DNA from: Minisyncoccia bacterium
GTDB lineage: Bacteria; Patescibacteriota; Minisyncoccia; UBA6257; GWB1-50-10
Length of the DNA stretch: 42,240 bases
Assembly: GCA_049997815.1 (NCBI GenBank)
Contig: JBEKVQ010000004.1
Location: 1-42,240 of the forward strand
Reading direction: 5' to 3'
In this document: positions 8,000-12,051 of the stretch, one piece after another
How the letters are laid out: every line of letters starts with the position of its first letter
How positions within the stretch are numbered: position 1 is the first letter of the stretch
Translations under genes and position numbers: made by a program
The notes under the pieces: generated by a model
Told to the model about the DNA's origin: nothing
Database searches by the model: none
Seen by the model: the letters and a program-made list of their open reading frames with translations, nothing else

Positions 8000-9001
8000 A
8001 TGGAAAAAGAAAACAAGAAAACCAAAAACGACGACATAAATCTCGAGCTTCTCCTGCGCCCATCCCGCTGGGACGAATATATCGGCCAGGAAAAAGTTAA
8101 AACCAATCTGCGCCTCATCATCGACGCGGCCCGGGGCCGGAACGAAGTCACCGACCACCTGCTGTTCTACGGGCAGGCGGGCTTGGGAAAGACCACCCTT
8201 GCGTATCTCGTGGGCAAGGAGATGAACGCGAATGTCCGCTCCACGTCCGGACCCGCACTCGAGAAAGCCGGCGACATCGCCGCCATCCTCTCGAATCTCG
8301 AACCGAACGAGATCCTTTTCATAGATGAGATTCATCGCATTAACAAGCTGGTGGAAGAAATTTTGTATCCCGCGCTCGAGAGCCGGAAACTCCATCTTAT
8401 CGTCGGCAAGGGCCCCTCGGCCAAGACATTCAGTTTGGACCTGCCGCCTTTTACGGTCATCGGCGCGACGACGAGGATCAATCCCCTTTCCGCTCCGCTC
8501 CGATCGCGCTTCGGGGCCATATTCCGGCTGGACTATTATCGGCCGGAGGACATCGAGAAAATAATCAAGCGATCGGCCCAAATTTTGGGCGTCAAGATAA
8601 CGGCTGAGGCGATAGAGAGGCTCGCCAAGGCATCGCGCTTCACTCCCCGCACCGCGAACCGCCTCCTGAAACGCACCCGCGACTATGCGCAAGTAAACGA
8701 GCAGGGGGCAATAAACGAGGAAACGGTCCGAAAAACGCTCGAGATGCTCGACGTGGACGAATTGGGTCTTGAGGAAACCGACCGGGAGCTTTTAAGGATA
8801 ATCGTGAAGAAGTTCAACGGCGGACCGGTGGGCCTGAAGACCCTTTCGGCCGCTTTAAATGAGGAGGTGGAAACCATCGAGGGCGTTTACGAGCCATTCC
8901 TCATGAAACTCGGGCTCCTTCACCGCTCCCCCCTCGGCCGGATCGCGACTCCGCTCGCCTACGAACACCTGAAGATCCCTCGCGACAAGAAACTGATTTA
9001 A
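8000..9001 (+). CDS. ruvB: Holliday junction helicase RuvB
   Basis: LRPSRWDEYIGQ, GQAGLGKTTLA, FIDEIHR, PLRSRFG, FTPRTANRLL, EGVYEPFL. Confidence 0.97.
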   Translation: MEKENKKTKNDDINLELLLRPSRWDEYIGQEKVKTNLRLIIDAARGRNEVTDHLLFYGQAGLGKTTLAYLVGKEMNANVRSTSGPALEKAGDIAAILSNLEPNEILFIDEIHRINKLVEEILYPALESRKLHLIVGKGPSAKTFSLDLPPFTVIGATTRINPLSAPLRSRFGAIFRLDYYRPEDIEKIIKRSAQILGVKITAEAIERLAKASRFTPRTANRLLKRTRDYAQVNEQGAINEETVRKTLEMLDVDELGLEETDRELLRIIVKKFNGGPVGLKTLSAALNEEVETIEGVYEPFLMKLGLLHRSPLGRIATPLAYEHLKIPRDKKLI

Positions 9002-9006
9002 AGACA

Positions 9007-9453
9007 ATGAGATTCGTGAGTGATTCTCCCGCCAAGACCAAACAACTGGGAATGCTTTTGGCGAAGGAGATCTTAAAAGACAGGGGTGGTGATTCCGCGA
9101 TCATCGCCCTTCGGGGAAATCTCGGCGCCGGAAAGACCACGTTCATTCAGGGCTTCGCTCGGGGGTTGGGATTGAAGAACAAGATAACGAGCCCAACATT
9201 CATAATCTTCCGGCACTACCGGCTCAGAAACAGGCATCGGAAACATCTTTTCCACGTCGATGCCTACAGAATAAAAAAGATTTCCGAACTCGGTCCGCTG
9301 AACCTCAAGGAGATATTTTCCATCCCAAAAAGCATCATCCTCATCGAGTGGCCGGAAAAGATAAAAGGGGCGCTCCCCCAAAAAACCGGCTGGCTGGAGT
9401 TCCGCCACAGCCGGAAAGAGAACGAGAGGATTATCAGTATTAACGTAAAATGA
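9007..9453 (+). CDS. tsaE: tRNA t6A biosynthesis ATPase TsaE
   Basis: GNLGAGKTTF, SPTF, HVDAYR, IEWPE. Confidence 0.95.
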   Translation: MRFVSDSPAKTKQLGMLLAKEILKDRGGDSAIIALRGNLGAGKTTFIQGFARGLGLKNKITSPTFIIFRHYRLRNRHRKHLFHVDAYRIKKISELGPLNLKEIFSIPKSIILIEWPEKIKGALPQKTGWLEFRHSRKENERIISINVK

Positions 9454-9454
9454 A

Positions 9455-9577
9455 TCCCGTTAGAGACAACTAAGCTATTAAAATTATGAACAATATGAAC
9501 TACCAATGGGTCGGAATAATCAAACCAAGCGATGTATTACGGATGCACTTTTTAAGCGCATCCTGTCTCTAACGGGA
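9455..9577. mobile_element. MITE-like 123-bp non-autonomous element
   Basis: Perfect 14-bp terminal inverted repeats TCCCGTTAGAGACA (9455-9468) and TGTCTCTAACGGGA (9564-9577); TGAA direct repeats at 9451-9454 and 9578-9581; AT-rich non-coding interior. Confidence 0.8.
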
Positions 9578-12051
9578 TGAAAAAACTTCTGCTCATTGAC
9601 GCCAATTCATTGATCCATAGATCGTTCCATGCCCTGCCGCCACTTACGGCCCCGGGTGGCATACCGACCGGCGCCCTTTATGGTCTGGCGGGAGCGCTCA
9701 TTAAAGTTTTGGACAGCGAAAAGCCGGATTACGTGGCGGCGGCATTTGACCGTCCCGAACCGACCTTCCGAAAAAAGATGTTTAAGGATTATAAGGCCCA
9801 TCGGCCCAAGGCGCCCGACGAACTCGTGAGCCAGATAATCGAGGCCCACAACCTTTTCGGACAGTTCGGCATCAACTTCTTCGAGGCGCCGGGCTACGAA
9901 GCAGACGACGTAATTGGAACTTTCGTCGAAAAATTCGGCGGCGGAAAAGACCTTAAAACGACGATATTGACCGGGGATTTGGATACGCTCCAGCTCGTGA
10001 AGGACAGGAGTATAGTCGTCGACATCCTGAAGAAGGGCGTGAGCGAAACGGCTCTTTACGATGAGGATGCGGTGATTGATAGGTACGGCCTGAAACCGGT
10101 TCAAATGACCGATTATAAAGGGCTCGTCGGCGACACCTCGGACAACATTCCCGGCGTAAGAGGCGTGGGACCGAAGACCGCCGGGGAGTGGCTCAAGAAA
10201 TACGGAACGCTAGAGAATCTTTTCAAAAAAATGCCCGCCTCCGACCCTTCCGCAAAGAAGATACTGCCATTCAAGAAAGAAGCCCTCTTCTCCAAAGAGC
10301 TCGCCACCATCAACCGCAAGGTGCCGGTCGGGGTGGCGATTAACGACCTTAAGTTCGAGGGGGTGAACAAGAACGCCCTTATTCCCTATTTCAAAAGTCT
10401 GGGCTTTGAAAGCCTGATAAGAAGAATGGACGGTGAAAAGAGAATGGCGGAGAAGCCGCTTACTCAAGGGCTCTTCACATTCGAACACGAGGGCGGGGAA
10501 AGTGAAACGAAAGCGATATTCATAAAAGATGAGAGCGACGCCGAGACCAAAGAGCAGGTGGGAGAAATTGAGGTAGCCTGGGAATGGAAACCGATGATAA
10601 AAAAGATGATTTTAGAGGAAAAAGAAATTCCGCTCCGCCTTTTCGATCTGGGAGTGGCCGGGTGGATCCTAAATTCCGGAGAGAGTGATTTTTCTCCCCA
10701 AGCGCTTAGAGAAAGATTCCTGAAACATGCCGGCGACGCCGACGGGAAGAGTTTAATGAGGCGCGTCTTTTCTGCACTAGAGGCCAGAATAAGATCTTCC
10801 GGGTCGGAAAACGTCTTCTACAGGATAGAGATGCCGCTCATTCCGGTTCTGGCTCAGATGGAACTCTGGGGAATAAAAACGGATAAAGCAAGATTGGAGA
10901 AATTGGGAGCAGAAATGGAAAAAGAACTCTCAAAACTCACCAAAAAGATCTACGCGGCTTCGGGCAGCCATTTCAACATAAACTCGTCCCAGCAGCTTGC
11001 CGAAGTTTTATTCGAAAAACTTAAGATAAAAACGGATAAGAATAAGAGAACGGGAACGGGCCGGCGCTCCACTTCGGAGGACGTCCTCATTCCAATCGAG
11101 GATTCCCATCCAATTGTAGGCGACATCCTCATCTATCGGGAAACATTCAAGATAAGGACGACTTACATCGAGCCGCTCCTATCGGCCCGAGGCAAGGACG
11201 GAAGAGTAAGAACGAACTTCATCCAGACCGGAACGACGACCGGGCGCTTGGCTTCCGAAAAACCAAATCTCCAGAACATCCCCCAGGAATCCAGGTGGTC
11301 CGAACCGCTCCGGCGGGCATTCGTGGCCGAGCCGGGATTCTCTTTTGCCTCGCTGGACTATGCCCAGGTGGAACTGCGGCTTCTGGCCCACATAACACTT
11401 GAGGATGAGCTTATAAAAGCCTTCGACGACAACCGGGATATTCATGCCCTCACCGCCTCGCGTATTCTCAGGGTTCCCCTCGATAAAGTAACCAAGCAGG
11501 AGCGCAGACTCGGAAAAACACTCAACTTCGGGGTCGTCTACGGAATGGGGCCGCGCGCCTTCAGTCAATCGGCCGGCGTGAGCTTTGCCGAAGCCAAAAA
11601 GTTCATCGCCGACTATTACCGGGAATTCCCGAAGGTAAAGAAGTGGCAGGACAAGGTAAAAGAGGAGGCCCGGAAGAGGGGCTTCGTAGAGAACCTGAAC
11701 GGGCGGCGGCGCTGGTTCTTTTCCGACACGGAACATCCCAAAGAATTGGGCGAAATAGAACGGGCGGCGGTTAATATGCCGCTTCAGAGCCTGGCGGCCG
11801 ACATCCTAAAGATGGCAATGATAAAATCGTTCGCGCTGCTTCGGGAGAGAGATTGGCTCGAAAATAAGGCCCGGCTGGTTCTTTCGGTCCACGACGAATT
11901 GCTCTTCGAAATTCGCGATGATATTCTAATGGAAGCTGTACCAATGATAAAAGGACTAATGGAGGGAATTTACTCCCTGGCATCGCCGCTTGTGGTCGAA
12001 GCCAAAACCGGCAAGAGCCTGGGGGAACTCAAGAAATACGAAAATGTTTAA
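9577..12051 (+). CDS. polA: DNA polymerase I (5' nuclease plus polymerase; proofreading domain shrunken)
   Basis: [74 protein letters not shown]. Confidence 0.96.

Follow-up and report, generated by a model that had tools for sequence, protein, structure and literature searches.

Several kinds of short repetitive DNA are known to populate bacterial genomes. Bacterial miniature inverted-repeat transposable elements (MITEs), such as Correia/NEMIS in Neisseria, RUP, ERIC, and the Rickettsia palindromic elements, are short, gene-less, multicopy sequences that have terminal inverted repeats and duplicate a short target; they are cotranscribed with neighboring genes and tolerated in compact genomes. 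Elements of the IS200/IS605 and REP/RAYT type are moved by a Y1 HUH transposase and generate no target duplication. GIY-YIG enzymes are classic homing endonucleases, and those such as phage T4 Seg and I-TevI possess extra DNA-binding domains, have a single cognate site each, and are propagated by homologous repair with neither inverted repeats nor duplications. In the Ssn system, the 94-residue single-domain GIY-YIG enzyme SsnA (catalytic residues Y6, Y17, and E64) binds its hairpin as single-stranded DNA (ssDNA) only and cuts a few nucleotides upstream; the ssn gene has NTS/SRM hairpins of its own on both sides, and the authors note that the NTS-ssnA-NTS arrangement resembles an insertion sequence (Chenal et al. 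2025, Nat Commun, PMC11893778). Here, we describe an insert between tsaE and polA in a 42,240-nucleotide stretch of the genome of a Minisyncoccia bacterium (GCA_049997815.1, contig JBEKVQ010000004.1, positions 1 to 42,240; hereafter, the window), and we compare it with these systems.

We propose that the insert, at window positions 9455-9577, is a non-autonomous copy of a ~275-bp GIY-YIG element that is widespread in the candidate phyla radiation (CPR) and inserts precisely at start codons, and that the element's nuclease moves it; we assign this reading a probability of roughly 0.7. The features of the locus, including open reading frames (ORFs), are as follows, in window coordinates.

9007..9453, + strand: tsaE, 148 aa (ORF; Pfam TsaE, E = 2.3e-33)
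9451-9453, + strand: tsaE stop codon TGA, within the left TGAA copy
9450..9473, + strand: 7-codon ORF MNPVRDN*, read from the sequence and its translation
9451..9454, + strand: left target-site duplication, TGAA, 4 bp (the empty site in congener G002 is a single ATGAA)
9455..9577, + strand: non-autonomous element (MITE), 123 bp, by homology to other copies an internally deleted GIY-YIG element
9455..9468, + strand: left terminal inverted repeat TCCCGTTAGAGACA, from an inverted-repeat search; covaries with the right arm in 75 elements
9486..9572, + strand: 28-codon ORF MNNMNYQWVGIIKPSDVLRMHFLSASCL*, from translation, in the same frame as the 7-codon ORF
9541..9563, + strand: inner hairpin (arms 9541-9550 and 9554-9563), adjoining the right repeat
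9564..9577, + strand: right terminal inverted repeat TGTCTCTAACGGGA, ending in the A of the polA ATG
9578..9581, + strand: right target-site duplication, TGAA, from the sequence and the empty site in congeners
9577..12051, + strand: polA, 824 aa (ORF; Pfam DNA_pol_A, E = 4e-120, and 5_3_exonuc_N, E = 1e-50)

A first-pass annotation of the window, made from the sequence without database searches, had reported perfect 14-bp terminal inverted repeats, a TGAA duplication, an internal hairpin beside the right repeat, and insertion exactly into the overlap of the tsaE stop and polA start, with the last base of the right repeat supplying the A of the polA ATG. Each of these observations was confirmed at the coordinates listed above, and the interpretation built on them is supported, with refinements described below. 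The 14-nt TCCCGTTAGAGACA is part of a pair of 15-nt arms (9454-9468 and 9564-9578; ATCCCGTTAGAGACA and TGTCTCTAACGGGAT) that are 100% complementary and have 95 nt between them. The arms of the inner hairpin (GGATGCACTT and AAGCGCATCC) are 90% complementary. When a 141-nt stretch was folded, the inner hairpin was stacked on top of an outer 15-bp stem (z-scores of −5.4 for either DNA strand and −7.0 for RNA; 0 of 200 shuffles as good). Rfam scans of the locus and of a full-length copy of the element returned no known RNA family.

The left repeat, which in full-length copies encodes nuclease residues 2 to 6 (NPVRD), is crossed here by the 7-codon ORF, beginning at the original polA start codon that overlaps the tsaE stop. 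The 28-codon ORF terminates at the TAA at 9570-9572, 4 nt upstream of the polA ATG. Stop codons break the nuclease frame within the 123-bp element, and these 7 and 28 codons are the only ORFs that remain. The polA orthologues of congeners have the same N-terminal start as the polA of the window. The copy upstream of polA is the only one inside the window.

The first-pass annotation had predicted that relatives would retain an empty tsaE-polA ATGA junction, and such a junction is present in three congeneric species (G002, G003, and G004; G000 denotes the genome of the window, 744 kb and 99% complete, C a contig, and L an extracted locus). In these species, the tsaE-polA junction is uninterrupted (e.g., ...aaattcaaaatATGAAAAAACTT), with the tsaE TGA inside the ATGA, and the plain overlap is also found in the more distant G009, G011, and G022. 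Another congener, G001, carries a full-length element of a different end subtype at the same ATGAAAAAACTT upstream of polA (L093, on G001:C2). The polA start is occupied by end type AGAGAT in G001 (full length) and AGAGACA here (MITE) and is empty in the three congeners; either this start is a repeatedly hit site or one element has replaced another. More broadly, 21 of 22 start codons that are occupied in six related genomes are empty in G000. Many empty counterparts are exact single-copy targets, as where atccatATGAAT...ATGAAACCAATC in G004 corresponds to atccatATGAAACCAATC in G000. The polA MITE is 86% identical to a copy at another locus in G002, versus 64-79% to its sisters in its own genome, and hence it reached polA already as a MITE. 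In-place decay from a full-length insertion shared with G001 was considered and rejected, since both the deletion structure and the sequence match MITEs located elsewhere and in other species.

Eight paired copies were found in the 744-kb genome, consistent with the earlier expectation of a repeat family rather than a sequence unique to one locus. These comprise four homologous elements of ~120 nt (on C4, C7, C10, and C11), a 101-nt variant (C1), GC-rich hairpin forms of 66-67 nt (C14 and C7), and a single 275-bp copy (G000:C2:116569-116843), the only one in the genome with an intact nuclease. Seven of the eight have (A/G)TGAAT to the left of the left arm and ATGAA followed by a host ORF to the right of the right arm. 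The downstream host ORFs include polA, an FtsH-like protease, a SecY-like protein, and a sugar transferase; except for polA, these identities were judged by eye from translations.

The 275-bp copy corresponds to the longer form that the first-pass annotation had suggested looking for, and it encodes a GIY-YIG nuclease that is a candidate mobilizing enzyme. Its intact ORF of 94 residues (MNPVRGNQFYYVYVIRS...KRFLPLTG*) matches PF01541 (E = 1.3e-17 to 1.6e-17), and this 78-position GIY-YIG domain is the sole domain of the protein. Codons 2 to 6 constitute the left repeat and the final codons the right repeat, and the nuclease stop TGA overlaps the host ATG. The 5' and 3' parts of the polA insert match this copy. 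The 120-nt copies in general retain the 5' end and the last ~25 codons of the nuclease gene, with in-frame stops. Judged by this homology, the 120-nt copies are deletion derivatives of the GIY-YIG element. A second, different GIY-YIG ORF was observed outside the window, at G000:C2:78333-78530 (L010:1501-1698; MFYVYVLKNKFRQIYIGYTGDLR*RFKDHN...SLNG*). It contains one in-frame TGA, lies alone in an intergenic region without CCCGTTAGAG ends, and is probably a decaying relative or a member of another subfamily.

The family extends well beyond this genome. The 15-mer TGAATCCCGTTAGAG (at most one mismatch) was found in 26 of 61 related genomes, representing several families of the order; a reversed control gave three hits in total. 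More than 510 proteins related to the nuclease were recovered when a single genome from each species was scanned (identity 65-82% for the best 80), mostly from Patescibacteria/CPR, with some from Omnitrophota, Planctomycetota, and others. Element length was confined to 272-283 bp across 76 distinct loci. The ORF was intact in 72 of 75 elements, and the ratio of nonsynonymous to synonymous substitution rates (dN/dS) was ~0.22 for pairs unsaturated at synonymous sites. The lineages appear to be old, since the median proportion of synonymous differences (pS) over all pairs was 0.74. These substitution patterns indicate purifying selection on the GIY-YIG gene. Conservation within the family is at least 95% for the Tyr, Tyr, Arg, His, Glu, and Asn residues that characterize active GIY-YIG enzymes, and the protein of the 275-bp copy has all 32 near-invariant family residues. 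Among solved structures, the closest is BH0048, a UPF0213 protein (E = 1.5e-10), with SLX1 next; Bacillus subtilis YazA is 43% identical to the nuclease.

The repeats of the full-length element are superimposed on its coding sequence. The outer repeat (13-14 bp) consists of the first codons (MNPVR, CCCGTTAGAG) and the last codons (..LTG*, CTCTAACGGG) of the gene. A second inverted repeat of 10 bp is nested inside it, with one arm at about nt 88 (GGAAGCGCTT) and the other adjoining the right outer arm (AAGCGCTTCC), and was found in every full-length element (10 of 10 positions paired in 56 elements and 9 of 10 in 19). When the 24 pairs were examined in an alignment of 75 elements, 97.7% of cells were standard pairs, and 13 of the pairs had changed on both sides (134 cells). 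Pairing of this extent was not reached by any of 500 shuffles on any of five measures, and sliding the partner by 1-3 columns reduced it to 31-51%. Protein coding cannot explain the match between arms, because the variable paired positions are third codon positions (GAC/GAT/GAA versus CTG/CTA/CTT; AAG/AAA versus TTC/TTT). Taken together, the covariation data indicate that both inverted repeats are selected as nucleic acid structure.

The MITE corresponds to the full element minus ~155 nt between the inner arms, leaving ~120 nt; with this loss, the nested repeat collapses to the tight inner hairpin seen upstream of polA. In 18 of the genus's MITEs, RNAalifold recovered both stems, and 7 pairs showed compensatory changes. 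MITEs at different loci and in different species have one common deletion structure, which argues that they spread as MITEs. The polA insert itself shows the hallmarks of this class: it is short and encodes no enzyme, it has repeats and a target duplication, it is polymorphic and multicopy, and a longer parent with the same ends exists. In these respects (short, gene-less, multicopy, with terminal inverted repeats and a target duplication), it resembles the bacterial MITEs described above. In contrast to those, its parent is a 275-bp unit encoding only a GIY-YIG protein and not an insertion sequence with a DDE transposase, and insertion occurs on a start codon, in one orientation, with the start rebuilt. 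Likenesses to IS200/IS605 and REP/RAYT include the hairpin ends, the proposed ssDNA substrate, the fixed orientation to a 4-nt word, the tiny size, and the gene-less derivatives; unlike those systems, this family has a target duplication, and Y1 is absent from this genome.

We characterized the target site from the flanks of the 76 full-length loci. In 43 of them, the flanking 4-mers were identical and the outer repeat base was paired (TGAA in 37 loci, TGAG in 3, and TGAT, TTTA, and TCAA in 1 each). The paired terminal base next to the duplication was T:A in 56 loci and C:G in 17. Within G000, a 4-bp duplication flanks seven of eight copies. Other duplicated words were TGGA, in congeners, and TTGA, in this genome. 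A 5-bp ATGAA duplication was rejected, since the TGAG, TGAT, TGGA, and C:G outer-base variants fit 4 bp plus a paired terminal base. The earlier proposal that the ends target start/stop junctions stands in part: flanks favor (A/G)TGA and start codons, and the duplicated word is mostly TGAN at starts; however, the target is not strictly a stop/start junction, since TGGA and TTGA are also duplicated. The TTGA case is the 67-nt GC-rich hairpin form at G000:C7:2553-2619, which has family termini (CCCCGTTAGAAG...CTTCTAACGGGG) and TTGA on both sides. The right TTGA lies within TTGACT-N17-TACAAT, resembling a sigma-70 promoter, and this copy in an apparent -35 box therefore suggests that insertion by the family can also hit a -35 box, which is then rebuilt.

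Start codons account for 16% of TGAA sites outside genes and 28% of [AG]TGAA sites outside genes, and all seven TGAA-flanked copies in G000 lie on starts (p ~3e-6 for TGAA; 1.4e-4 for [AG]TGAA). Orientation relative to the asymmetric target and to the host gene was uniform in all 19 MITEs of the genus and in all start-codon full-length copies. Tandem copies were also observed, lodged in the target rebuilt by the first copy (L027/L028, L038, and L079). Because the element lands on start codons and rebuilds them, essential host genes remain intact. These comparisons among genomes leave mobility and start-codon rebuilding well supported.

The comparative data show the following. The full element consists of one gene, encoding a single-domain GIY-YIG nuclease of 86-94 residues, whose own end codons form the repeat arms. 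Insertion is precise, falls on start codons in a single orientation, and duplicates 4 bp (mostly TGAN); at the locus studied here, the target was the overlap of the tsaE TGA and the polA ATG. The start codon that originally belonged to the host gene then opens the reading frame of the element, and a host start is rebuilt from the element's final base and the duplicated TGA; this start overlaps the nuclease stop as ATGA in full-length copies. As to mechanism, we propose that the nuclease is the putative mobilizing enzyme: it may recognize the folded single-stranded ends (the inner hairpin stacked on the outer stem), cut at the stem base in the way that related Ssn nucleases cleave next to their hairpins, and act in trans on MITEs that keep both stems. 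In favor of this proposal, the 99%-complete genome gave no match to Y1 (PF01797; IS200/IS605, RAYT), rve, or DDE_Tnp_1, the three transposase families covered by the search, whereas control genomes did. More tentatively, and at somewhat less than even odds, the ~275-bp unit would be an autonomous element of a new mechanistic class, in which a bare ~90-residue GIY-YIG nuclease acts on folded nested repeats, the start codon is borrowed for the element's own expression and given back rebuilt, and the MITEs keep open relay frames that bring ribosomes to the host start.

Several points weigh against the proposal that the nuclease moves a start-codon element. Mobility is known from comparative evidence and the link between the nuclease and mobility is one of association, and a hydrolytic nuclease by itself explains neither strand joining nor the 4-bp duplication. 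A clean 4-bp duplication is absent from 33 of the 76 full-length loci, mostly outside the CPR. The insert is fixed at strain level: four other, independent assemblies, retrieved by an exact-protein lookup of TsaE, all carry it in identical form, so there is no strain-level polymorphism at the locus. The start-codon bias was computed on a rough ORF-based annotation of this genome and may partly reflect selection against other intergenic insertions rather than active targeting. Finally, the MITE at L140 (G004:C4:128405-129419) has no duplication. At this locus, excising TCCCG...CGGGA restores ...aatcaATGACCAAG, a perfect empty site, contrary to the 4-bp duplication rule.

Among other explanations, the one that survives best, though still unlikely, is that the GIY-YIG gene is a passenger with another role and that the ends are recognized by a transposase or recombinase encoded elsewhere or by host repair. 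Such an arrangement would supply the strand-joining activity that a hydrolytic nuclease lacks, and the transposase search excluded only three families. In addition, the MITE ends (AGAGACA) differ from those of the genome's only full-length copy (AGAGGCA) at one covarying position. Against a passenger role, however, the opening and closing codons of the gene itself make up the repeats in over 70 diverged copies, and the repeats covary with the gene while purifying selection acts on the ORF. The 275-bp unit is also too small to hold another gene, and no gene of the three families searched is present to act in its place.

Slightly less probable than a passenger gene is a host system of the Ssn/NTS type, in which a domesticated ssDNA nuclease modulates DNA uptake or recombination and the repeats are propagated through recombination or repair rather than transposition. 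CPR bacteria rely on taking up DNA, and the protein architecture is that of the Ssn family (cd10448): both are single-domain GIY-YIG enzymes of ~94 aa, and the catalytic Y, Y, and E, conserved in at least 96% of 72 proteins, agree in spacing (Y11, Y22, and E68 in our alignment numbering versus Y6, Y17, and E64 of SsnA in the published numbering). As in Ssn, the gene lies between hairpin-forming repeats of its own, and these are also present without the gene in many copies. In contrast to Ssn, which has separate 20-50-nt hairpins on each side, the arms here are the gene's end codons plus a nested repeat and enclose the gene. The published degenerate SRM pattern matched an NTS example and none of the eight elements, and it was not enriched in the genome (2 matches versus 2.6 expected). 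The precise insertions with 4-bp duplications, the exact empty sites, and the tandem copies in a rebuilt target also argue against a host system; duplication, empty sites, and start-codon capture are unreported for Ssn. Because the SRM motif fails and the gene-enclosing layout differs, we do not file the family as a proven member of Ssn; we class it as working like an Ssn/hairpin system whose behavior as a mobile element is demonstrated.

A free-standing GIY-YIG homing endonuclease gene, copied into empty alleles by homologous repair and leaving short copies that decayed in place, is a poor fit and very unlikely. The nuclease does have a weak match to the NCBIfam group I intron endonuclease model (E = 2e-4), which falls below the cutoff of that model, and the polA site is occupied in two species. 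Like T4 Seg and I-TevI, the element joins a GIY-YIG catalytic domain to a selfish lifestyle that spares the host gene. Unlike those enzymes, the 94-aa protein is a lone GIY-YIG domain without a DNA-binding module, and insertions are found at dozens of unrelated loci and carry duplications; MITEs of one deletion structure across loci and species are likewise at odds with decay in place. A regulatory hairpin of the host (a translational operator or terminator) that arose in situ upstream of polA, for which the strong RNA stem sequestering the polA AUG could be cited, is refuted already by the presence/absence pattern: three congeners have a plain ATGA overlap instead. The same sequence also precedes unrelated genes, and the insert is homologous to a nuclease gene and matches no Rfam family.

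Several consequences for the host can be inferred. The left arm contains stops in both other frames, a TGA from the target and a TAG in CCCGTTAG, and an upstream gene reading into the element ends within four codons; tsaE in G001 and the gene that precedes the C11 copy are examples. A 4-mer resembling a Shine-Dalgarno (SD) sequence preceded 21% of the starts of long ORFs versus 16% of internal controls, with a weak peak at −14 to −8, which suggests that initiation in this genome is mostly SD independent. Because SD sites are rarely used, losing the native upstream sequence may cost little.

In the 19 MITEs of the genus, stop codons are scarce in the frame that ends at the right-arm TAA, 4 nt ahead of the host ATG (11 stops versus a shuffled mean of 43.5; 0 of 2,000 shuffles as low), and the other two frames contain 72 and 30 stops. 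The stop-poor frame is fully open (~40 codons) in 7 of the 10 copies in which it is in phase with the captured start; in the polA copy, it is split into the 7-codon and 28-codon ORFs. The peptide sequence of this open frame is not conserved. These data fit selection for ribosome transit, in which both stems would be opened and termination would occur just before the rebuilt start. The first-pass annotation had proposed that the insert uncouples translation. This idea is unproven and may be the opposite of what happens, since the open frame that related short copies retain from the captured start to a TAA near the host ATG points to retained coupling. In our model, polA expression would be kept in two ways: SD sites are rarely used in this organism, and ribosomes leaving tsaE may restart at the captured ATG and melt the left arm, thereby freeing the polA AUG held in the right arm. 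A separate observation in the 19 MITEs concerns the frame in phase into the host ATG, which has an excess of stops (72 versus ~43 expected). This excess would keep host proteins from being made with N-terminal extensions, or it may simply follow from the neighboring frame being open.

A literature search found no description of this GIY-YIG family as a mobile element or transposon; in one paper, GIY-YIG genes are listed with the genes that other phyla have received from Patescibacteria. If the nuclease moves the element, it would represent a transposon reduced to one ~90-codon gene with its cis structure superimposed on the coding sequence, and a new selfish-DNA lifestyle in a streamlined genome, in which a start codon is occupied, used, and returned. 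If the unit is autonomous, no smaller autonomous mobile element would be known from cellular genomes. Movement by the nuclease would also provide a very compact programmable DNA-insertion module, and it would link the biochemically characterized Ssn ssDNA nucleases to a mobility function that those who discovered them had no more than suspected. The same reading would account for many CPR genes annotated as GIY-YIG domain proteins, for their hairpin repeats, and for their apparent horizontal spread to other phyla.

Inserts of this kind also affect genome annotation, where they give rise to false intergenic gaps and short spurious ORFs and alter the C termini of upstream genes. In the window, Pfam labels place ruvB (8000-9001) upstream of tsaE, with T2SSE, a type II/IV secretion ATPase, farther upstream. 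The gene order ruvB-tsaE-polA is conserved in four assemblies.

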